From sequence record MN850614.1: a stretch of DNA of 64,000 nt; one strand, written 5' to 3'. The position numbers and the translations under genes are program-made. The stretch comes from Escherichia phage adrianh. Under the pieces are notes generated by a model. The model ran no database searches, was not told the origin of the DNA, and was given only the letters and a program-made list of their open reading frames with translations. Every line of letters begins with the position of its first letter. Position 1 is the stretch's first letter. This document shows positions 37,075 to 50,780 of the stretch, in pieces.

Positions 37075-37104
37075 TTGACAAGGGGCTTCGAAGCCCCTTA
37101 GAAT
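37075..37104 (+). promoter_or_regulatory. Promoter-like element with palindromic spacer
   Basis: TTGACA, spacer formed by palindrome AGGGGCTTCGAAGCCCC, then TAGAAT; could equally be a weak terminator for the upstream gene. Confidence 0.35.
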
Positions 37105-42393: not shown

Positions 42394-42461
42394 GAAACTT
42401 CGTAGTATATTCACAATAGACTAAGCCTTTCTTATCTGGTAAATTTTTCAGGTAAGGAGGG

Positions 42462-42650
42462 TTTTTTCATTTCAGATTTGTGCAGGTAGAGTTCTGTAGA
42501 GAAATCTATAGAGAAAATTTTGAACTCCAAAGAGAAAATTCATTTTCAAACTGTGCAGGTAATCTCCAAAGGGTTTTTTTCATTTTCAAAACGTGCAGAG
42601 AAAAATCAGGTCGGGCAAGAAAAATCATTTTAGAATTGTGCAGGTAGGTG
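42462..42650 (+). repeat. Four direct repeats, consensus TCATTTYMRA-N-TGTGCAGGTA
   Basis: Copies at about 42462, 42536, 42574 and 42620 in an ORF-free stretch after the macro-domain gene. Confidence 0.6.
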
Positions 42651-42902
42651 GGTACATGTGGGGATGTCGCCATTTCTCACAAGGCTACCACATCTAAAAA
42701 TAAAAGTCAACAGAAAAATTTGTAGCGGATTGAAAAATAATTCTTGATTGTAGTTCTGTTTTGTGGTAGTCGCGCGCACCCGTTTCATTACAATCTTTGC
42801 AAAAAATATTTTTAAAATTCCTATTGACTCTTTGAGTATGGTTATCTAATATTTGCATCAGACGGGCAATCAAGCCCACTTCCTAAACTGGAGAATCTAA
42901 AA

Positions 42903-43109
42903 ATGCTTTACAGTCGCGAATTGATGGTTACAACTAACATTAACACAAAGGCAAAACGTTTTTACATGCAAATCTGTGGCGTATGGTCTAGAATATCAGA
43001 GACTGACTATTGCAACTATGTAGAAACGGCTATAAACTCTAATTGCTACCTTACAAGAAATACAAGAAAGTACATAAGACAGACAGCAATTTATTACTAC
43101 GATAAATAA
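42903..43109 (+). CDS. Hypothetical small protein
   Basis: 68 aa ORF with AGGAGAATC... GGAGAA-like RBS upstream; low support. Confidence 0.3.
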   Translation: MLYSRELMVTTNINTKAKRFYMQICGVWSRISETDYCNYVETAINSNCYLTRNTRKYIRQTAIYYYDK

Positions 43110-43197
43110 AGTACTTTACAAGGGGCTTATAGTTCGATAAAGTAAGCCCCAGATAAAGAGCTTTACCAAATTAACCCTTAAACTAGGAGATTCAAAA
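43109..43197 (+). promoter_or_regulatory. Type A cassette, copy 1 (promoter-like, stem-loop, RBS)
   Basis: AAGTACTTTACAAGGGGCTTATAGTTCGATAAAGTAAGCCCCAGATAAAGAGCTTTACC ... GGAGA ... ATG; TTTACA-N17-TAAAGT with GGGGCTTA/TAAGCCCC stem. Confidence 0.55.
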
Positions 43198-43581
43198 ATG
43201 GCATATCGTGCACCGAAATTCATCAACAAAGACAACTTTCGCAAAGTACTGGAGAAGTCACTTGATGAGAATTTTAAAGGCAACATTATTGTTGTTCACG
43301 CATTCAATTTTAAGTATGATGTAAACGGGAATAGAATCAACCATTACACGGCAACCATGTTAGACGGTACACTATCAAGTGAAAAAGCCGTACTGAATGC
43401 ACTAGCAGGACGCGGAAAAGTATTAGTAAGATGTGATAAGCGACGTTATCAGGGTGGCGCATATGGTTATGATGATGCTGTTTATCATCTTGAAAATATG
43501 GGCTATAAAGTAGAAAAAGCTGGAGTATCGCAAATCATCGGGAGCGATGGTTATGTAACAATCTTCAAAATTAACGAATAA
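43198..43581 (+). CDS. Hypothetical protein (small-gene array 1)
   Basis: 127 aa; starts Met-Ala directly after cassette A. Confidence 0.55.
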   Translation: MAYRAPKFINKDNFRKVLEKSLDENFKGNIIVVHAFNFKYDVNGNRINHYTATMLDGTLSSEKAVLNALAGRGKVLVRCDKRRYQGGAYGYDDAVYHLENMGYKVEKAGVSQIIGSDGYVTIFKINE

Positions 43582-43667
43582 AGTACTTTACAAGGGGCTT
43601 ATAGTTCGATAAAGTAAGCCCCAGATAAAGAGCTTTACCACTAAATCCTAAATTGGAGAACTTAAAA
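43581..43667 (+). promoter_or_regulatory. Type A cassette, copy 2
   Basis: Near-identical to copy 1. Confidence 0.55.
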
Positions 43668-43901
43668 ATGGCTATTATCAAAAACGTTGTAATTGCTGCA
43701 AAAACTCGTGATGACGCTCGCGTTATGGCTAAAAAGTTATGCGGGAAAGTGGTTGACAATGGGAAAAAATCTGCTGTAAGATGGGGCGTAAAGGTTGATA
43801 AACATTTAACCTTAAAACGTAGTTCAAACAACCTTTTTAAAGGTGTAAAATCACTCGGTAAAGTGAATGTTTTCACTAAAAAGGTTATAAAATGCACTTA
43901 G
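43668..43901 (+). CDS. Hypothetical protein (small-gene array 2)
   Basis: Start set to the ATG at 43668 (the ORF track begins at a TTG inside the cassette). Confidence 0.5.
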   Translation: MAIIKNVVIAAKTRDDARVMAKKLCGKVVDNGKKSAVRWGVKVDKHLTLKRSSNNLFKGVKSLGKVNVFTKKVIKCT

Positions 43902-43925
43902 CATTAACTGGAAATTTAATCTGAT

Positions 43926-44012
43926 AAAGTACTTTACATGGGGTTTAAAAGTTGATATCTTAAGCCCCAGATAAAGAGCTTTACCACTCAATCCTAAACT
44001 GGAGATTCAAAA
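43926..44012 (+). promoter_or_regulatory. Type A cassette, copy 3 (variant)
   Basis: Variant stem GGGGTTTA/TAAGCCCC (a C-to-T change that still pairs as G-U). Confidence 0.5.
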
Positions 44013-44525
44013 ATGAAAACTGTAGACGCTACTTTTGAAGTTGTAAAAGAAAAATTCACCATTATCTATGAAGCGGTAAATTGCTTTGAAGCAAGCCATA
44101 ATCTTGATAATTGGAAGTTTACAGATGACCATCAAGGCGGTGTGACTATTAAAAATCCTAACTGTCAGCGTAACGATTTTAAATATGCAATTCCTTTAAA
44201 TTATAGCCTTAAGCAGCTTTCTAGTGACTATGCAAAACAAGGCCGGGAAAACCCATCAAAAGAGGCTTATATCAGCTTACAGGAAGAACTAGAAAGAGAT
44301 TTAGAGGCTTCAGAGTACAACCTTGCCGCGAAAGTTGTGGATGCAAACGGTAACACGGTTTTAGAAAGTTTTTATCTTGGTTATGCTTTCGATTGGTGCT
44401 ATCGTGACGGCGATGATTTAGAGGATAGACTAAAAGAAGAGGTGAGCAATTCAGACGCAGAAACTGAAGTATTAGAACGTTTGGAATCGTTGAAAGACTC
44501 AGTGATGAATATCTTTAAGAACTAA
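44013..44525 (+). CDS. Hypothetical acidic protein (small-gene array 3)
   Basis: 170 aa. Confidence 0.55.
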   Translation: MKTVDATFEVVKEKFTIIYEAVNCFEASHNLDNWKFTDDHQGGVTIKNPNCQRNDFKYAIPLNYSLKQLSSDYAKQGRENPSKEAYISLQEELERDLEASEYNLAAKVVDANGNTVLESFYLGYAFDWCYRDGDDLEDRLKEEVSNSDAETEVLERLESLKDSVMNIFKN

Positions 44526-44529
44526 ATAG

Positions 44530-44617
44530 ATTTCTTTACACGGGGCTAACAAGCTGATATGATAGCCCCAGATAAAGAGATTTATCAAATAAAGCCCTTA
44601 AACTAGGAGATTCTAAA
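44530..44617 (+). promoter_or_regulatory. Type A cassette, copy 4 (variant)
   Basis: Stem GGGGCTA/TAGCCCC with a different loop sequence; flanks conserved. Confidence 0.5.
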
Positions 44618-44914
44618 ATGAAATTATCGAATAAAGTTCGTGAAAATCTGAGCAAATTACTCAACAAAATTGATTTCATTGAAACATCAAGAAATAGTCA
44701 TGATGTTATGGAATGGTTACACGGCAAAATAAAAGGCCGTCGTGTAGTGATTTGTTTATGGAATAGTTGCAGGGAGTATAAAAAACCTGTATTGCAAGTA
44801 AATATTTATGATGATACTTTTAAAAGTCCTGTAAAGTCTAAAAGTGATTTATTAGAATCCTATGAGATAACTTTAAATGGCAAAGTATCACGTAAAGAGG
44901 AAACACCATGTTAA
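44618..44914 (+). CDS. Hypothetical protein (small-gene array 4)
   Basis: 98 aa. Confidence 0.5.
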   Translation: MKLSNKVRENLSKLLNKIDFIETSRNSHDVMEWLHGKIKGRRVVICLWNSCREYKKPVLQVNIYDDTFKSPVKSKSDLLESYEITLNGKVSRKEETPC

Positions 44915-45240
44915 TGACTGGTATCACTGCAATCATTGCCATTTTCGCGCTATATAAGGCATATAAAGCCTATAATCTAGCAAATAAGGCAATCACACAG
45001 CAGGTTAGCAATAACCTTGTAGAAAGCTTTCTAGGGCGCCTCAGTGATGAGCAAATAAAGCGGCTAGAGATGAGCTTCAGATATAAAGCGAAAACCTATC
45101 AGATAAGTGACATCTTCAAAGATGATTTTCAGTTAGTGGATGATTATAACTCTCTGATAAATGCTTTAAATATTAGTGACTTAAAAGACTATTACGCTGT
45201 AATTGTCCAAGAATTGAACAAACGAAAAAATTCCTCTTGA
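44908..45240 (+). CDS. Hypothetical membrane protein (small-gene array 5)
   Basis: 110 aa; N-terminal hydrophobic helix; start overlaps upstream stop. Confidence 0.5.
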   Translation: MLMTGITAIIAIFALYKAYKAYNLANKAITQQVSNNLVESFLGRLSDEQIKRLEMSFRYKAKTYQISDIFKDDFQLVDDYNSLINALNISDLKDYYAVIVQELNKRKNSS

Positions 45241-45328
45241 TTTTGGTTTTTAAAACAAGTAAATTACTAATCAACGGGAGGTAATAACCTCCCCACTAAG
45301 TAAAATCCTTAAACTAGGAGCTTTTAAA
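45236..45328 (+). promoter_or_regulatory. Type B cassette, copy 1
   Basis: CTTGATTTTGGTTTTTAAAACAAGTAAATTACTAATCAACGGGAGG-loop-CCTCCCC ACTAA ... AGGAG ... ATG. Confidence 0.55.
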
Positions 45329-45601
45329 ATGTACACTACTAACAACGGTCGCACCTTAAACGTAACCCTACGCCACTACATGAACGGCGTAATGCACTTC
45401 GAGGATTTACAAGCCGAACAACATATCTTAGATTGGCAACTTGCAGGACTACAAAAAACTGCTACAGGATACGGGAAAAAGATTCCAACCAGTTGGAAAG
45501 TATACTACGAAGGCCGTTTGCGCAGAATTTATCAGGATGTGCAAAGCAATAGCGCATTGAGTTACATCATAGTAAAAGGTAAAAAGCTGCATTTAGTATA
45601 A
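45329..45601 (+). CDS. Hypothetical protein (small-gene array 6)
   Basis: 90 aa. Confidence 0.5.
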   Translation: MYTTNNGRTLNVTLRHYMNGVMHFEDLQAEQHILDWQLAGLQKTATGYGKKIPTSWKVYYEGRLRRIYQDVQSNSALSYIIVKGKKLHLV

Positions 45602-45687
45602 AGTACTTTACAAGGGGCTTATAGTTCGATAAAGTAAGCCCCAGATAAAGAGCTTTACCACTAAATCCTAAATTGGAGAACTTAAAA
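45601..45687 (+). promoter_or_regulatory. Type A cassette, copy 5
   Basis: Near-identical to copy 1. Confidence 0.55.
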
Positions 45688-46092
45688 ATGGCTATTAATA
45701 ATCGCGAGTTATCAATCTTAAAAGCACGTTTGACCGTTAACCGGATTAATGTTATTACGTCATCAGCACCGGACGAAACATTGCACAACATTATTGGGAA
45801 GATTCAAAGCGTTATCTTAGACGTTGAAAACGTAAAAAACTCATTGGCTGACGTTGCAGCAGGTATCACGCTAGACGGTGCACAATATGAAATGACCGAC
45901 ATGTTAGGCAAATCTAAGGTAATGAATAAAGAGCTTGATTTGAAAATGTTTCGGTTTGCTGTTAAAGTGTGGCTATCTGTCGAGTATGACGCTAACTTTG
46001 CAATCGCTGACTTTTTCGCCACTTGGTTACAACGTAATTTGACAAATCATGATTTTCGTGGTATCTGTGATGCAATTTATGCAGAACTCTAA
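45688..46092 (+). CDS. Hypothetical protein (small-gene array 7)
   Basis: Start set to ATG 45688 (the ORF track begins at a TTG inside the cassette). Confidence 0.5.
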   Translation: MAINNRELSILKARLTVNRINVITSSAPDETLHNIIGKIQSVILDVENVKNSLADVAAGITLDGAQYEMTDMLGKSKVMNKELDLKMFRFAVKVWLSVEYDANFAIADFFATWLQRNLTNHDFRGICDAIYAEL

Positions 46093-46098
46093 AAATTT

Positions 46099-46193
46099 AT
46101 CTTGATTTTGGTTTTTAAAACAAGTAAATTACTAATCAACGGGAGGTAATAGCCTCCCCACTAAACAAAGTCCTTAAACTAGGAGATTCAAAA
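46099..46193 (+). promoter_or_regulatory. Type B cassette, copy 2
   Basis: Same sequence as type B copy 1, including the upstream CTTGATTTTGGTTTTTAAAA. Confidence 0.55.
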
Positions 46194-46397
46194 ATGGCTA
46201 TTATTAACGGTTTAACCATTGAAACTACACACATCAAAGATATTAAAGTCGGTGATGTAGTTCTCTTTCACGGCGTAGAAAAAACCGTCACGGCGAAAGA
46301 TATTACAGAGGACTCCTTCATGGGTAGGTCACTCTTCGGTGATTCTTATTGCTTAGGTTACCGTGCAGTTTTAAAAGTTGTAAAAAATAACCGATAA
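46194..46397 (+). CDS. Hypothetical protein (small-gene array 8)
   Basis: 67 aa. Confidence 0.45.
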   Translation: MAIINGLTIETTHIKDIKVGDVVLFHGVEKTVTAKDITEDSFMGRSLFGDSYCLGYRAVLKVVKNNR

Positions 46398-46482
46398 AGT
46401 ACTTTACAAGGGGCTTATAGTTCGATAAAGTAAGCCCCAGATAAAGAGCTTTACCACTAAATCCTAAATTGGAGATTCTAAA
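46397..46482 (+). promoter_or_regulatory. Type A cassette, copy 6
   Basis: Near-identical to copy 1. Confidence 0.55.
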
Positions 46483-47025
46483 ATGAAATGCTTTCACGGT
46501 ACTACCCAAGAAAATTTCCTCAACCTGATTAATAACGGTGACAAGCCATCAGGTGCATGGAATTGTTCGGATATGGACGGCAATTTTTACGTGTACCCAG
46601 AAAATAAAATCTATGGCGACGATGAGGAAGAGATAATCTCTGAAGGTATCCAGCAAGCGTTAGGTAATGCCACTATTACGGCCGCTTTCCAGATGAAAAC
46701 CCAAAATATTGTTATCTTAGAACTTGATATCCCAGAGGATGACCTAAATGACGATTATTCTTGTGATAATATGTCTGGCGTAGCAAGTTTTACAGAATAC
46801 TTCGATTTAAATTGGATTAAAAAGGTTTACGTAACAGAGTTTAACGCTATGTATTCGCCTTTTTGTCTTCCTTCATTGGATAACCCAAATTTAAATTATC
46901 TTGATGAGTCTCTGGAGCTTCTTGCTAAAAGTGTCCAACAGTCGGACAGTATTCAGGTTTTTTGTGACATCATGGACACACTAACGGGAAACATCGCAGA
47001 AGAGGATTTAAAGAGCTTTTTCTAA
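46483..47025 (+). CDS. Hypothetical acidic protein (small-gene array 9)
   Basis: 180 aa. Confidence 0.55.
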   Translation: MKCFHGTTQENFLNLINNGDKPSGAWNCSDMDGNFYVYPENKIYGDDEEEIISEGIQQALGNATITAAFQMKTQNIVILELDIPEDDLNDDYSCDNMSGVASFTEYFDLNWIKKVYVTEFNAMYSPFCLPSLDNPNLNYLDESLELLAKSVQQSDSIQVFCDIMDTLTGNIAEEDLKSFF

Positions 47026-47057
47026 AAACCTATGCAATCACCTTATAAACACTGATT

Positions 47058-47078
47058 AGCCCCTCACAGGGGCTTTTA
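47058..47078 (+). terminator. Rho-independent terminator
   Basis: AGCCCCT-CACA-GGGGCT hairpin followed by TTTT. Confidence 0.55.
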
Positions 47079-47091
47079 AGAGGCTTAAATC

Positions 47092-47325
47092 ATGCTTACA
47101 ACCGTTTATCTTATCCTTTCTATTTGTAATGGTCATTCATGTGATTTTAAAGGGCTTGAGGAGTTTACAGGAAGTAAAGAAAATGCTGTTCAGGTCTGTC
47201 AGATAGCAAGGCAAGACTACCCCGCCAGTGATGACATACAATGTTACTTTAAGACAGAAGATGAAGATGGTATCTATTTCGATAGTGTAGACGGTCAATA
47301 TGAAATAATTATAGAAAAAGACTAG
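47092..47325 (+). CDS. Hypothetical protein (small-gene array 10)
   Basis: 77 aa; the one array gene without a cassette. Confidence 0.4.
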   Translation: MLTTVYLILSICNGHSCDFKGLEEFTGSKENAVQVCQIARQDYPASDDIQCYFKTEDEDGIYFDSVDGQYEIIIEKD

Positions 47326-47339
47326 ACAAGCCTGATAAA

Positions 47340-47415
47340 AATCTGTAAATTACTAATCAACGGGGAGGGAATGACCTTCCCCACTAAACAAAATCCTAAA
47401 CTGGAGATTCAAAAA
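47340..47415 (+). promoter_or_regulatory. Type B cassette, copy 3 (variant stem)
   Basis: GGGGAGGGAATGACCTTCCCC stem-loop variant; flanks conserved. Confidence 0.5.
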
Positions 47416-47757
47416 ATGGCTTATGTAACCGTAATTACTGATAAAGAGGGTTCATCTTGGTCAACTCAGGTTAGTGATAAGATGTCGCCTATGCAGTGCC
47501 TAAAATACTTTGAACAGTGGAACAAAGGCGAGGACACAAGCCCCTTTCAAGTGATGCAGATTATCCATGTAGACAATGAAGGGAAGAAAACGACTTTAAA
47601 CAGCGAGTTCTATGCAACCCGATTTGAAACGAGATGTAAAACGATGAAGTTATTACGTGAATCCGGTTATGCCCATATCGCCGCGTTAATCTGGGATGAC
47701 CTGCTAAAAAGTCAGCGTATCAGCTATGTAAAACCTGAAAAAATATTCATCAGTTAA
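47416..47757 (+). CDS. Hypothetical protein (small-gene array 11)
   Basis: Start set to ATG 47416 (MAYVTV) directly after the cassette. Confidence 0.5.
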   Translation: MAYVTVITDKEGSSWSTQVSDKMSPMQCLKYFEQWNKGEDTSPFQVMQIIHVDNEGKKTTLNSEFYATRFETRCKTMKLLRESGYAHIAALIWDDLLKSQRISYVKPEKIFIS

Positions 47758-47789
47758 TCAATAACTTACAAAAAACTTTCAAAAAAGTA

Positions 47790-47818
47790 TTGACAACGCC
47801 CCTTGACATTGGTAGATT
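47790..47818 (+). promoter_or_regulatory. Sigma70-like promoter
   Basis: TTGACA, 17-nt spacer, TAGATT. Confidence 0.45.
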
Positions 47819-47902
47819 TGTTCGAGGGGGTTTATCTAAAAGGGATTAACTTAAAAGATTCTTTATAGATAAACTTAAAAAATTGCTTGCAATCAGATAT
47901 CA

Positions 47903-47978
47903 AAACAAGTAAATTACTAATCAACGGGAGGTAATAGCCTCCCCACTAAACAAAGTCCTTAAACTAGGAGATTCAAAA
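47903..47978 (+). promoter_or_regulatory. Type B cassette, copy 4
   Basis: GGGAGGTAATAGCCTCCCC hairpin with conserved flanks. Confidence 0.55.
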
Positions 47979-48509
47979 ATGAACAAATTTCAAGCTATCA
48001 ACTACATTCGCTCAAATGCTGTAATGTCTAAGCCTGTTAAAGATACCTATGAATTTCGCTGCAATGGGGTACACTTTGCAACCATCACTAAATCAGAAAA
48101 CGGGGCTTATTACGTTCATCGTCGTAATGTTGCAACCGTTGTAGTCTCTCACTTTATGCAAGCTGTAGCAGAGTTATTACCGCTATTCTTAGGGATTTAC
48201 TTGGATGAGTGTAAAAACGTTCACAACCACGTTAAAAACCTTTTAAACGGTTATAAAATGGCTTATGAACGTTCTATCAAGTCCTTAAACAAGTTCTATA
48301 AAGCCCCTGTAAATACTGTTTCAATGGCCTACGCTGCAAATGGTGAAAGAGTAAACCTATCCGATGTGGAAGATATCGAGCTTTACGACCATCGGCCTAA
48401 CGGTTACTCTCAGACACTCGGTGAAGGTTTAACGTTCAATATCAAGAACTTAGAAAAAACTTTAAAAGATATTGAAAAAGATATTGACGAGACAATCAAA
48501 AATCTGTAA
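47979..48509 (+). CDS. Hypothetical protein (small-gene array 12)
   Basis: 176 aa. Confidence 0.55.
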   Translation: MNKFQAINYIRSNAVMSKPVKDTYEFRCNGVHFATITKSENGAYYVHRRNVATVVVSHFMQAVAELLPLFLGIYLDECKNVHNHVKNLLNGYKMAYERSIKSLNKFYKAPVNTVSMAYAANGERVNLSDVEDIELYDHRPNGYSQTLGEGLTFNIKNLEKTLKDIEKDIDETIKNL

Positions 48510-48573
48510 ATTACTAATCAACGGGAGGTAATAGCCTCCCCACTAAACAAAGTCCTAAACTGGAGTTATCAAG
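48500..48573 (+). promoter_or_regulatory. Type B cassette, copy 5
   Basis: Overlaps the stop of the upstream gene; hairpin conserved. Confidence 0.5.
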
Positions 48574-48837
48574 ATGGAAAACGTAGAATTAACCACACTT
48601 TTACAAATTGCAACCGACAAAGAAGATGTAGCATTATTCCACCGTATCGAAAGTGATTTGTTCAATGGTGAAATCATCAAAGAATCTTATGAAGTTGTCG
48701 GATTCAAAGATGGTAAAGCGTTTGGCTTTTTTGACCTCGACAAAGGCAACGCGGTTGCAAAATATGATGTTTTATCTTGTGAGATTCTTACAAAATACAA
48801 CGAAAAAAGGCTTGCAACATACGCCAACATGCAGTAA
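48574..48837 (+). CDS. Hypothetical protein (small-gene array 13)
   Basis: 87 aa. Confidence 0.5.
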   Translation: MENVELTTLLQIATDKEDVALFHRIESDLFNGEIIKESYEVVGFKDGKAFGFFDLDKGNAVAKYDVLSCEILTKYNEKRLATYANMQ

Positions 48838-48903
48838 ATTACTAATCAACGGGAGGCGACAACCTCCCCACTAAATAAAACCCTTAAACTAGGAGATTCA
48901 AAA
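48832..48903 (+). promoter_or_regulatory. Type B cassette, copy 6 (loop variant)
   Basis: Stem GGGAGG/CCTCCC kept while the loop changes to CGACAA. Confidence 0.5.
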
Positions 48904-49152: not shown

Positions 49153-49191
49153 TCGGCGCAGCGGGGCTAAATAGCCCCAGATACCTTTACA

Positions 49192-49217
49192 GCCCCTTTC
49201 CCATAGGGGCTTTTTTA
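49192..49217 (+). terminator. Rho-independent terminator closing the plus-strand block
   Basis: GCCCCT-TTCCCAT-AGGGGC hairpin followed by TTTTTT. Confidence 0.65.
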
Positions 49218-49219
49218 CG

Positions 49220-50780
49220 TCTATCCAATCCTCATACAACCCCTTTCCCTTTCCTTTCCAGAATCTTATCAGACCTTAAAAAGCAATAACTTTACAGCCT
49301 TTTACTAAGTCAATTAATTGGCCTTATTAATAAGCCCTTAAACATAAGCCAATAACCCCAGAAAGGGGGCAACCCATTTAAACGCCATATAAAGCCCTAT
49401 AACGGCCTTTTTAACCTAACTTAAGGGATTGCATTACCTCACCCTTAAAAGCCCTTTATAAAGCTTCACAGAGCCTTAAAAGAATCTTATAAGGGTGTAA
49501 GCTTTATTATCTCGTTAGCTATCTTGTGAACTACTAAACAACCCCCTTGATAGTAACTGAAAAGTATGTTATAGGGGCTTTAAAGTTACTTTGAAGTATC
49601 TTAAGAGTTACGTAAATGCTAGCCCCCTTAACATTCTCTTAACAATTTCTTAACAATCCCTACATAGTTATGCTTTTAAGGCACTTGTTAGCAACTTGTT
49701 AGCCCCTTGTTAAATCTCTGTTAAGACCACGTAAAAGCCTTGTAAGAGTCTTTGACATAGCCTTTAAAGCTTCTGTAAAGCCTTATAAAGAGGTGTCTGT
49801 ACAGTTGGGGTGTAACTACTAGTGAGAGACTTAAAAGAGCTTACAAGGAGCTATAGAGAGCTTTTAAGAGGTATGTTTAAGGAATCACTAAGAAAGGAAA
49901 GGGAACGATAAGAAAAGAGTAGTGACCATGTTAATAGCTTGTTAAAAAGATTAAACACTTGTTAGAAACTTGTTAATTATCTTAACAAAATAACTCTTTA
50001 AAATTAACTTGTTAGCTCTTGTTAGTCATCTGTTAAGCCTCTGTAAAGACTATTCAGCACTTGTTAATTGGTATTGTTACCAATCCCTAGAAAACTGTTA
50101 AGCCCTTGTCAGTTCTGTTAAGAAACTGTTAAGACCTTTGAAGAGTTGTTAAGAAGATGTGAGAACTGTTAAGAGATTGTTAAGGATATTTTAAAATTTT
50201 GCAAAGGGGATGTTACAGGGATGTTAAGGGCTACCAAGCAGATATACATCCTCTACAGATATTTTTCAGTTCCTTCAAAGACCCTAAAAAAAAAATGACT
50301 TGACAGTCTTATTTTATAAAAATTTTAAAATTCTGAATAATTACCTAGACAGTCTTTTAAAAATACAGGTAGAAACAGGCTTATAAGATACCTTGTTAGT
50401 ACCGTGTTAGACCTTGTGAGATAAGGTCTGTGAAGATATTCCTGTTAAGTTTGTTAAAACAGCCTATATAGAGGCTTAGTAATACCTAGTGAACACCTAT
50501 AGAGGGTAACATAGCTAACCTAGAGATTAAGAGGTGTATAGGAGCTTCTAAGAGTGTGTAGAGAGATGGTTAAGGTGATTGTATAGGTTGTTAAGAAGGC
50601 TTGTTAGAAGAGTGTTTAGAAGGCTTGTTAGAGGGCTAGTTAGAAGGGTTATACAGAGGGGCTATTAAGACCACTAGATAGTTACTAAGATACTATATAG
50701 TACTATATAACTATATATAGAGAGTAAGATTAAGAAGGTTGTTAAGAAGGGTAGATATTTTATTCACATATGATGGTGAC
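49220..50780. repeat. ORF-free region dense in short direct repeats (iteron-like)
   Basis: No ORF of 60 aa or more on either strand over about 1.6 kb; 49220-49520 rich in AGCC(C/T)TTWWAA-type motifs; 49520-50700 carries more than 25 copies of YTGTTARG; AT-rich ACTATATA repeats at about 50690-50725. Confidence 0.6.

Follow-up and report, generated by a model that had tools for sequence, protein, structure and literature searches.

What do the hairpins do that recur between the small early genes of Escherichia phage adrianh, and is it their structure or their sequence that selection maintains? The window, a stretch of 64,000 nucleotides from this phage (MN850614.1), belongs to a Felixounavirus (Ounavirinae), a Felix O1-like myovirus. 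Its early-gene cluster at 42.8-49.2 kb consists of ORFans whose only matches are to PHROGs of unknown function, with none to Pfam. Almost every small gene of the cluster is preceded by a cassette, which fills the gap of approximately 90 bp separating it from its neighbour.

Cassettes of the early-gene cluster

Six type A and six type B cassettes, all in gene orientation, were found at the positions given in a preliminary description of this DNA. Its list of copies was right, but overlooked a seventh, B-like cassette with a GGGC/GCCC stem, the first promoter of the cluster (Table 1). The TAATAG loop that it had reported for type B was confirmed in the hairpins starting at 46141, 47926 and 48523, but 45276-45293 reads TAATAA. 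In 12 of 12 copies, GGAGA as Shine-Dalgarno motif and then ATG follow 45-55 nt 3' of the hairpin. Cassettes were found also in Mooglevirus and Suspvirus, and the genomes of these two genera and of Felixounavirus yielded approximately 150 instances of type A and 140 of type B; every match sits on the gene strand. None of the Rfam covariance models matched, the sole sub-threshold hit being a chance match to mir-980 (20.8 bits compared to a gathering threshold of 47, E = 0.73).

Table 1 Cassettes and canonical terminators of the early-gene cluster (positions in the window)
Element	Position	Strand	−35	−10	Hairpin	Remarks
Type A 1	43107-43165	+	TTTACA 43115-43120	TAAAGT 43138-43143	apical 43122-43150, GGGGCTTA...TAAGCCCC	position of full hairpin; predicted +1 A43151
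Type A 2	43579-43637	+	43587-43592	TAAAGT 43610-43615	apical 43594-43622, GGGGCTTA...TAAGCCCC	
Type A 3	43925-43983	+	43933-43938	TATCTT 43956-43961	apical 43940-43968, GGGGTTTA...TAAGCCCC	TG in extended −10 position; apical stem GGGGTTTAA/TTAAGCCCC, one U·G pair
Type A 4	44527-44584	+	44535-44540	TATGAT 44558-44563	apical 44542-44569, GGGGCTA/TAGCCCC	compensated U-A pair in lower helix (AGATTTC...GAGATTT)
Type A 5	45599-45657	+	45607-45612	TAAAGT 45630-45635	apical 45614-45642, GGGGCTTA...TAAGCCCC	
Type A 6	46395-46453	+	46403-46408	TAAAGT 46426-46431	apical 46410-46438, GGGGCTTA...TAAGCCCC	
Type B 1	45237-45293	+	TTGATT 45237-45242	TAAATT 45260-45265	45276-45293, GGGAGG TAATAA CCTCCC	predicted +1 A45273; upstream TGA stop inside −35
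Type B 2	46102-46158	+	TTGATT	46125-46130	46141-46158, loop TAATAG	
Type B 3	47323-47382	+	TAGACA	47346-47351	47362-47382, GGGGAGGG AATGA CCTTCCCC	8 bp including one G·U pair; upstream TAG stop forms first three bases of −35
Type B 4	47887-47943	+	TTGCAA	47910-47915	47926-47943, loop TAATAG	
Type B 5	48484-48540	+	TTGACG	48507-48512	48523-48540, loop TAATAG	upstream TAA stop forms first three bases of −10
Type B 6	48812-48868	+	TTGCAA	48835-48840	48851-48868, loop CGACAA	−10 contains upstream TAA stop
B-like 7	42824-42877	+	TTGACT	TAATAT (17-bp spacing)	42864-42877, GGGC AATCAA GCCC	
Terminator	42423-42474	+			hairpin and T-run	end of the unit that precedes the cluster
Terminator	49191-49221	+			hairpin and T-run	cassette cluster ends here

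The same region has been described in Felix O1, in which ORFs 16 and 20-22 peak at 5 min post infection and which lacks an RNA polymerase gene of its own (PMC3185647). Its genome paper calls the temporal regulation of transcription unknown and lists direct repeats of 57 bp (CTTTACATGGGGCTT...CTTTACCACT) and 39 bp (TTGACACTGG...CACATCAAC) without promoter, hairpin or function (PMC3185647). These repeats lie at the same genome position as our cassettes, at genes 15-21, and correspond to type A and to the promoter half of type B, respectively.

Two promoter architectures

The preliminary description had not recognised the cassettes as promoters. Type A is a sigma-70-type promoter of the form TTTACA-17 bp-TAnnnT with an AT-rich stretch (ATAAAGTA) upstream of the −35. 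In 100 unique variants, little or no variation was seen in TTTACA, in the 17-bp spacer or at the T, A and last T of the −10, whose middle positions vary (TAAAGT, TATCTT, TATGAT, TAAGAT, TAGTAT). The loop of the hairpin, previously taken to vary freely, holds this −10 hexamer and is constrained because of promoter function. The 8-bp GC stem forms no more than the apex of a larger, three-helix hairpin of 58-59 nt (helices of 6, 5 and 8-10 bp and a 3x3 internal loop), which spans the whole promoter and is the minimum-energy structure for nearly all variants.

Type B is likewise a sigma-70-type promoter (TTGnnn-17 bp-TAAATT), preceded by A-tracts such as GAAAAAA and TTAAAAAA at about −45 to −38, upstream of the −35. 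The −35 reads TTGnnn in 119 of 141 instances and TAGACA in 19 more, the −10 fits TAnnnT in 137/141, and the spacing is always 17 bp. Exactly 10 nt separate the −10 and the start of the hairpin in 132 of 137 instances, which places the stem at a predicted transcript position of approximately +4, if the start is taken to be the A eight nt past the hexamer. Some cassette variants carry GAAA or GAGA tetraloops, and in several other genomes the site orthologous to the B-like cassette holds GGGGAGGG...CCTTCCCC. The promoter hexamers with their 17-bp spacing, the stem-loops and the offset of the stem-loop from the −10 are all conserved.

Proposed selection on structure

The preliminary description had proposed selection on structure rather than on sequence alone, with covariation among homologs as a check. 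For type A, the proposal gained support: pairing holds in 95.8% of the cells of the 100 unique variants compared to at most 56.5% after sliding the partners, and 55 cells show double changes compared to 21.9 ± 4.6 in shuffles (0/500), with a covariation score of 0.102 versus 0.065; since shared descent and gene conversion link the instances, neither these shuffle counts nor the Fisher test should be read as true probabilities. The signal comes from only three pairs, two of them apical and one in a lower helix overlooked before. Pair 6/59 is G-C in 120 instances, U-A in 15 and a mixed combination in approximately 12, and four pair types occur at the apex. Of the stem-keeping changes that had been noted before, the G·U change is indeed present as the one frequent change of the core (C to U, in 42% of the variants), but the 8-bp core is otherwise almost invariant and GGGG/CCCC never changes. 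Since this core never varies, most of the type A conservation could be at the sequence level.

For type B, the covariation check did not bear the proposal out. A hairpin is present in 137 of 137 instances, built from 26 different stems of 4 to 8 bp and 29 loops, and the formal test gave no excess over shuffles because shifted G-run and C-run arms still pair; slid by 1-2 columns, their pairing is equal or better. Unrelated stems (GGGC/GCCC, GGGGC/GCCCC, GGGA/TCCC, GGGGAGGG/CCTTCCCC) are found at the same offset, and orthologous junctions carry differing hairpins at one and the same offset.

Could the likeness of the cassettes then result from recombination, gene conversion and promoter function, with a GC inverted repeat that is inherited and incidental? 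The invariant type A core and the type B test would fit such an origin, as would the sharing of variants among many junctions and the swapping of hairpin types at orthologous ones. We consider it improbable given the compensatory changes in type A, the unrelated type B stems at one offset and two further promoter types in the window, whose GC hairpins differ in sequence and polarity. Moreover, stem-disrupting type A variants are singletons, compared to 42% for the variant that preserves a G·U pair.

The inverted repeats might also be operators in double-stranded DNA, at which a dimeric protein of phage or host binds the GGGGCTTA/TAAGCCCC and TAAAGnnCTTTA boxes and shuts the early promoters off. 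In favour of this, the repeats lie on either side of the −10, no variation is seen in GGGG/CCCC and AGATAAAG, and both flanking boxes are near-palindromic themselves. However, the distance between the arms ranges from approximately 2-4 nt (49163-49178; 37082-37097) to 11-14 nt in type A, which a dimer would not tolerate, and the type B stem length ranges over several base pairs. A change in a single arm occurs where a G·U pair results, and G6 to T breaks the internal palindrome of box 1, yet is matched by C59 to A in box 2. It is thus quite doubtful that the repeats serve as operators.

Fold stability, strand and module exchange

Folded as RNA of 67 nt, type A reaches −21.6 to −24.8 kcal/mol, a stability that 0 of 200 dinucleotide shuffles matched (z = −5.3 to −7.7); the values for type B are −11.2 to −15.2 kcal/mol, with 0-1 of 200 shuffles as stable and z = −3.6 to −4.2. 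The fold of the + strand is stronger than that of the − strand by 0.8 kcal/mol in type A and 1.9 kcal/mol in type B, and in copy 1 of type A the order is reversed (−23.2 kcal/mol on the − strand, −21.6 kcal/mol on the + strand). Strand preference therefore only weakly resolves whether the hairpins act in RNA or in DNA, and it does not settle the matter for type A, which folds about equally well on the − strand.

Between genomes, modules of a cassette and its gene are gained and lost (e.g. g4+A, g9+A, g14+B); the modules g1, g3, g4, g9, g13 and g14 each occur in some genomes only, and a lone cassette remains at the junction where one is missing. Active homogenisation of the cassettes is evident from variants shared among many junctions and from hairpin types exchanged at orthologous ones. 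As repeats, they may provide the homology for recombination that shuffles the modules.

Hairpins in single-stranded or supercoiled DNA, i.e. cruciforms or hairpins at the replication fork, might stimulate this shuffling by recombination or template switching. Such a role would agree with cassettes bounding module gain and loss, with type A folding equally well on either strand and with one RB49 crossover that was mapped within a PeSL loop (PMC2839356). Nevertheless, we regard it as highly improbable: U·G-type pairs are preferred over A·C, type B is more stable on the + strand, and 60-110 bp of plain sequence homology already explain recombination. Cruciform extrusion is, in addition, disfavoured by loops of 11-14 nt and by internal loops, and type A has both.

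Proposed function of the cassettes

We therefore favour the reading that the cassettes are two families of early promoters, functional analogues of promoter-early stem-loop (PeSL) cassettes, whose hairpins act in RNA in the roles proposed below, and we put its probability at roughly 0.6. Each cassette would equip the next gene with a host sigma-70 promoter, a GC-clamped stem-loop and a common leader that contains a Shine-Dalgarno motif; the hairpins probably protect the 3' ends of read-through transcripts or direct their processing. The type A hairpin would cover −44 to +15 of its own promoter; as it spans its own predicted start, it is expected to form only in transcripts reading through from upstream promoters. 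In such RNA it would stand directly past the upstream stop codon, give the upstream message a protective 3' hairpin and serve as an intercistronic barrier or processing element that insulates the modules, possibly with some attenuation. The type B hairpin, approximately 3 nt past its predicted start, would have the further role of a cap at the 5' end of the mRNA started there, shielding it from 5'-end-dependent attack by RppH and RNase E.

The original proposal for PeSL stem-loops was that of terminators or attenuators, which stop or thin transcription arriving from upstream and prevent downstream over-expression, and one RB49 PeSL stem-loop cut lacZ expression about as strongly as rrnB T1 (PMC2839356). 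The hairpins here lie directly past upstream stop codons, and 14 promoters in 6.3 kb stand against two canonical terminators, both at the cluster edges. However, neither hairpin type has a U-tract (the tail reads AGAUAAAGAG, DNA AGATAAAGAG, in type A and CACUAAA in type B), and a terminator scan called 0 cassette hairpins, though it detected the true terminators at 42423 and 49191. A type B hairpin, being downstream of its own promoter, would moreover terminate its own transcript, so that termination appears an unlikely main role.

Type A might even be a promoter placed within its own processing site, at which RNase III or RNase E would cut read-through RNA within or beside the 3' side of its internal loop. 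The target would be the 58-59-nt helix, or the hairpin together with the invariant AGAUA 3' of it. We see only a small chance that this is so; if it were, all mRNAs of a module would carry an identical leader, regardless of whether they start at the local promoter or further upstream, and all upstream messages would end in a protective 3' hairpin. The predicted start of the embedded promoter falls in this same internal loop. At the cluster end, a loop-less GGGGCTAAATAGCCCC-AGATA occurs with no type A −35/−10 arrangement around it, which hints at hairpin-plus-AGAUA being a unit in its own right.

Comparison with known systems

A stable hairpin close to the 5' end blocks 5'-end-dependent attack by RNase E and RppH, and 5'-terminal stem-loops of the ompA type, reportedly described by Emory, Bouvet and Belasco, are said to stabilise mRNA in E. 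coli. The type B hairpin would resemble these stabilisers in its stability (−11 to −15 kcal/mol) and its distance of approximately 3 unpaired nt from the predicted 5' end, but, unlike them, would be present in read-through transcripts too. The early genes of phage T7 are separated by the intercistronic RNase III sites R0.3-R1.3. In read-through RNA, type A would likewise form an intercistronic helix of approximately 20 bp with an internal loop, and a cut there would be expected to provide the upstream message with a 3' hairpin, whereas the T7 sites contain no promoter and share no sequence similarity with type A.

PeSL cassettes are known from the T4-like phages RB49/phi1, PST/T4 and nt-1/KVP40 (Arbiol et al. 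2010, PMC2839356; Comeau et al. 2014, PMC4122927). They comprise a sigma-70 promoter, an AT-rich upstream stretch and a polyG/polyC stem-loop positioned over the −10 or between it and the −35, followed by a Shine-Dalgarno motif and ATG (PMC2839356). Both they and our cassettes are repeated intergenic units of about 100 bp with a sigma-70-like early promoter (conserved here across approximately 290 instances), an AT-rich stretch 5' of the −35 and a Shine-Dalgarno motif and start codon at the 3' end, and both are concentrated among small ORFans at indel or replacement boundaries between related phages. Judged on anatomy, not on sequence, type A is PeSL-like in that its G-run and C-run arms flank the −10, and the hairpin at 37082-37097 lies wholly in a promoter spacer, as PeSL anatomy allows. 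In contrast to PeSL, the host phage belongs to the Ounavirinae and is not T4-like, and two discrete architectures exist: the 58-59-nt helix of type A joins the initial transcribed region to that of the −35 by base pairing, and the type B stem-loop lies downstream of the predicted start site. A U-tract is absent from all cassettes here. PeSL have demonstrated promoter and terminator activity and form mini-circles, whereas our cassettes are known from sequence. The hairpins of the cluster are thus real and conserved, but of a known, PeSL-like kind.

Results

The 6.3-kb cassette region matches 254 phage records at about 85–94% identity, nearly all of them from Felix O1-like myoviruses of Escherichia, Salmonella, Shigella and Citrobacter; AYO145A, an annotated relative, is classed as a Felixounavirus (Ounavirinae). 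In the window, 15 small + strand genes (g1–g15) lie between two canonical terminators, and the gene directly upstream of this cluster encodes a macro-domain protein annotated as phosphatase. Ten cluster genes were scanned (nine per library), which returned only PHROGs of unknown function and no Pfam domains. Between two neighbouring cluster genes that lack a cassette lies a hairpin with just four T after it, possibly a weak internal terminator. Past the cluster, parts of the short direct repeats in a non-coding stretch are complementary to the 5′ arm region of type A (inverted repeats I2–I6).

Features in and around the early-gene cluster of phage adrianh
Feature	Position	Strand	Remark
Promoter outside the cluster	37075–37104		TTGACA, 18-nt spacer, TAGAAT
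Hairpin in the spacer of that promoter	37082–37097		GGGGCTTCGAAGCCCC, −13.3 kcal/mol
Canonical terminator, upstream border	42423–42464		terminator scan
Repeat of ~23–27 nt, three copies	42459–42647		TCATTTcAGAtTTGTGCAGGTAG; between upstream terminator and first promoter of the cluster
B-like cassette	42824–42877	+	stem GGGC/GCCC, different from type B copies
Hairpin between cluster genes	47056–47075		AGCCCCTCACAGGGGCT
Promoter with inverted repeat	47790–47829		TTGACA-17-TAGATT; arms CCCCTTG (47799–47805) and CGAGGGG (47823–47829)
Type A stem copy, nearly without loop	49163–49183		GGGGCTAAATAGCCCC, then AGATA; directly before the terminator
Canonical terminator, downstream border	49191–49211		terminator scan
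Non-coding stretch with direct repeats	49683–49982		ACTTGTTAGC...
tRNA cluster, 18 genes	60374–63996	+	typical of Felix O1-like phages

Cassettes of the two families, type A and type B, were collected by fetching loci around the neighbouring macro-domain gene, scanning viral contigs with two motif scans and searching all sequences with profiles derived from the copies in the window. The resulting set comprises 151 distinct instances of type A and 141 of type B, every one of them on the gene strand. The window copies of type A consist of TTTACA, 17 bp and then TAAAGT, TATCTT or TATGAT, those of type B of TTGATT, TTGCAA, TTGACG or TAGACA, 17 bp and then TAAATT. A consensus promoter scan detected all six type A copies, two of the six type B copies and the B-like cassette, a seventh copy of type B style. 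TTTACA and the opening T and A of the −10 hexamer were invariant among 100 unique variants of type A and its final T nearly so, while the three middle bases varied freely, as is classically seen in a functional −10; the type B hexamers both vary within the consensus, and the 17-bp distance is kept. Judged by these sequence features, each cassette is a predicted sigma-70 promoter. The 5′ arm of the type A hairpin falls within the spacer, the 3′ arm within the discriminator and the −10 in what had been described as the loop, which is thus constrained rather than free sequence. Stop codons of upstream genes are built into type B hexamers: a TGA lies inside the −35 TTGATT (45238–45240), a TAG opens the −35 TAGACA (47323–47325) and a TAA opens the −10 TAAATT at 48507–48509 and 48835–48837. 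In type A, the TAA of the upstream gene often lies within the first helix of the hairpin. Felix O1 does not encode an RNA polymerase, and several of its ORFs from this region reach their maximum at 5 min post infection (PMC3185647).

Other promoter types were considered and rejected. A T4 MotA-type middle promoter (GAGCTTTAC, 11 nt, TAAATT) would place the start between the Shine-Dalgarno site and the ATG; moreover, TAAATT is missing from half of the copies and Felix O1 lacks MotA and AsiA. A second promoter starting from the downstream CTTTACC box has no −10 at a usable distance. N4-type hairpin promoters and single-strand (Frpo-type) promoters were set aside given hexamers and spacing of standard sigma-70 type, loops of 11–14 nt and a phage without its own polymerase.

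Two further promoters were noticed. One, outside the cluster, is of the same style and its spacer is almost wholly hairpin; other genomes keep the stem with TCAA, TTGA or GAAA as loop. In the other, the −10 (TAACTT, TAATGT or TACATT in other genomes) is flanked by an inverted repeat of opposite polarity; type B cassette 4 follows about 90 bp downstream, so that the gene behind this cassette has tandem promoters. Both cassette types share a downstream leader, CACTAAA..CCT(T)AAACT(A)GGAGAttcAAAAATG (43166–43200 and its equivalent in every cassette). The record of phage Mordin lists 14-bp repeat_region features without stated function directly 5′ of each annotated ribosome-binding site; by position, they would correspond to this leader.

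All twelve hairpins of the preliminary description were found where it had placed them, with the sequences it gave except for one loop (TAATAA instead of TAATAG in type B copy 1). Type A copies fold far better than shuffled sequence (z = −5.3 to −7.7; none of 200 shuffles folded as well), and RNA folding returned the same three-helix structure for nearly every variant. Helix H1 pairs TAAAGT with GCTTTA (6 bp); H2 pairs CTTTA, which overlaps the −35, with TAAAG (5 bp) and is followed by a 3×3 internal loop; H3 comprises 8–10 bp and ends in a loop of 9–14 nt containing the −10. In this predicted fold, the type A stem described from the sequence is one helix, H3 in extended form, of a larger structure. 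It would cover about −44 to +15 relative to the predicted start of its own promoter, the A after CCCC (a C-then-A step 7–8 nt past the hexamer), on the 3′ side of the internal loop. As the fold spans its own start site, the full hairpin could form only in RNA reading through from an upstream promoter.

The claim that the hairpins are under selection for structure was demonstrably borne out for type A. In the 100 unique variants, 95.8% of cells were paired compared to at most 56.5% with partners slid; 55 cells were changed on both sides (21.9 ± 4.6 in shuffles) and the covariation score was 0.102 (0.065 in shuffles), values that none of 500 shuffles reached, although these counts are indications rather than probabilities, as the instances are linked by descent and gene conversion. 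A type A covariance-model alignment (A4) was excluded from the evidence since minus-strand matches of the palindrome were mixed in. The covariation signal is narrow. At H1 pair 6/59, 120 instances have G-C and 15, lying before eight different genes, have U-A, with about 12 mixed; the apical pair of H3 is U.G, A-U, U-A or C-G, following the variable −10 bases. The originally described core is nearly frozen: GGGG/CCCC does not vary at all and the sole common change, C to U (42%), retains a G.U pair. Stem-disrupting variants occurred only as singletons. The nearly loop-less stem copy before the cluster's terminator has no type A −35/−10 arrangement around it and is conserved across genomes (one variant is GGGGCTATTTAGCCCC), which suggests that hairpin plus AGAUA may form an independent unit.

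For type B, the stems do vary and only part of the structural claim held. The copies fold with z = −3.6 to −4.2 (0–1 of 200 shuffles as stable), and a hairpin of 4–8 bp is present in 137 of 137 instances, beginning exactly 10 nt past the −10 in 132, with 26 stems and 29 loops, GAAA and GAGA tetraloops among them. Between orthologous junctions, the hairpin can differ while its offset is unchanged (GGGAGG/CCTCCC, GGGGAGGG/CCTTCCCC, GGGGC/GCCCC, GGGC/GCCC). A formal test on a model-based alignment, in which length variants are still misaligned, found no covariation above shuffles. Arms slid by 1–2 columns pair as well or better, because they are runs of G and of C, and an arm-swap permutation was left out of the evidence as circular, the arms being defined by their own pairing. 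Conservation of the type B hairpin is clear, covariation is not demonstrable.

We compared the order of genes and cassettes across 23 genomes and found that modules are gained or lost with a single cassette remaining at the junction, as in g3-A-g5 versus g3-A-g4-A-g5 or g13-B-g15 versus g13-B-g14-B-g15. Some genomes contain extra ORFs of unknown function, each with its own A cassette. Cassettes are present in Felixounavirus, Mooglevirus (Michonne, Mordin) and Suspvirus (phiSUSP1). Loci L030 and L031 come from more distant relatives, whose neighbouring macro-domain protein shows 40% identity. In neither did nhmmer return a type A or B match, and L030, when searched for repeats, proved to have no repeated cassettes; these loci offer no test at deep divergence.

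Discussion

How might the stem-loops act? Folding favours the + strand over the − strand by 0.8 kcal/mol in type A (p = 0.015) and 1.9 kcal/mol in type B (p = 1e-5), which we do not take as proof of RNA since the effect is small and, for type A copy 1, slightly reversed. Three observations point to RNA: G.U pairs are tolerated whereas A.C pairs are not, tetraloops occur, and the cassettes keep strictly to the gene strand. We tentatively suggest that the type A hairpins act in RNA. The arms could alternatively form a DNA operator for a dimeric binding protein. This is unlikely: the same arms are about 2–4 nt apart at 49163–49178 and 37082–37097 but 11–14 nt in type A, one-sided arm changes are tolerated where G.U results, and G6→T breaks the palindrome of its own box, yet is matched in the partner box. 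That the hairpins terminate transcription is improbable as well, as neither type is followed by a U-tract or called by the terminator scan, and the type B hairpin comes after its own promoter. We consider action of the stem-loops at the RNA level the most likely mechanism: both types would protect read-through transcripts at the 3′ end, direct their processing or insulate them, and type B might additionally cap the 5′ end of its own transcript.

Felix O1-like phages are widely used in typing and biocontrol of Salmonella and E. coli; to our knowledge, their transcription programme is essentially unannotated. Read as 14 sigma-70 promoters, the repeats provide a concrete early-transcription map of this accessory-gene region, and the promoter-cassette reading explains its mosaicism between isolates. 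The cassettes are compact, strong-looking and portable expression units on which phage engineering could draw. Should the hairpins turn out to govern mRNA processing or stability, they would amount to a simple, naturally occurring way of insulating each gene.

In the Felix O1 genome paper, the same sequences appear solely as direct repeats of 57 and 39 bp; its authors reported no promoters in this region and described promoters and temporal control as not understood (PMC3185647). Later genome papers and annotations label a few cassettes as generic promoters, terminators or 'repeat_region'. An Rfam search of the cassettes returned no family, and our literature search found no work on Felix O1 promoters or stem-loops, no Felixounavirus transcriptome or transcript-end data and no paper connecting Felix O1-like phages with the promoter-early stem-loop (PeSL) cassettes of T4-like phages. 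It is these PeSLs that the present cassettes match in anatomy and behaviour. In a PeSL, an early promoter of sigma-70 type is preceded by an AT-rich stretch and accompanied by a polyG/polyC stem-loop, which in most cases overlaps the −10 or is placed between it and the −35; a Shine-Dalgarno site and ATG form the 3′ end. PeSLs cluster among ORFans and are involved in indels (PMC2839356, PMC4122927). Our analysis widens the idea of mobile promoter/stem-loop cassettes beyond T4-like phages.
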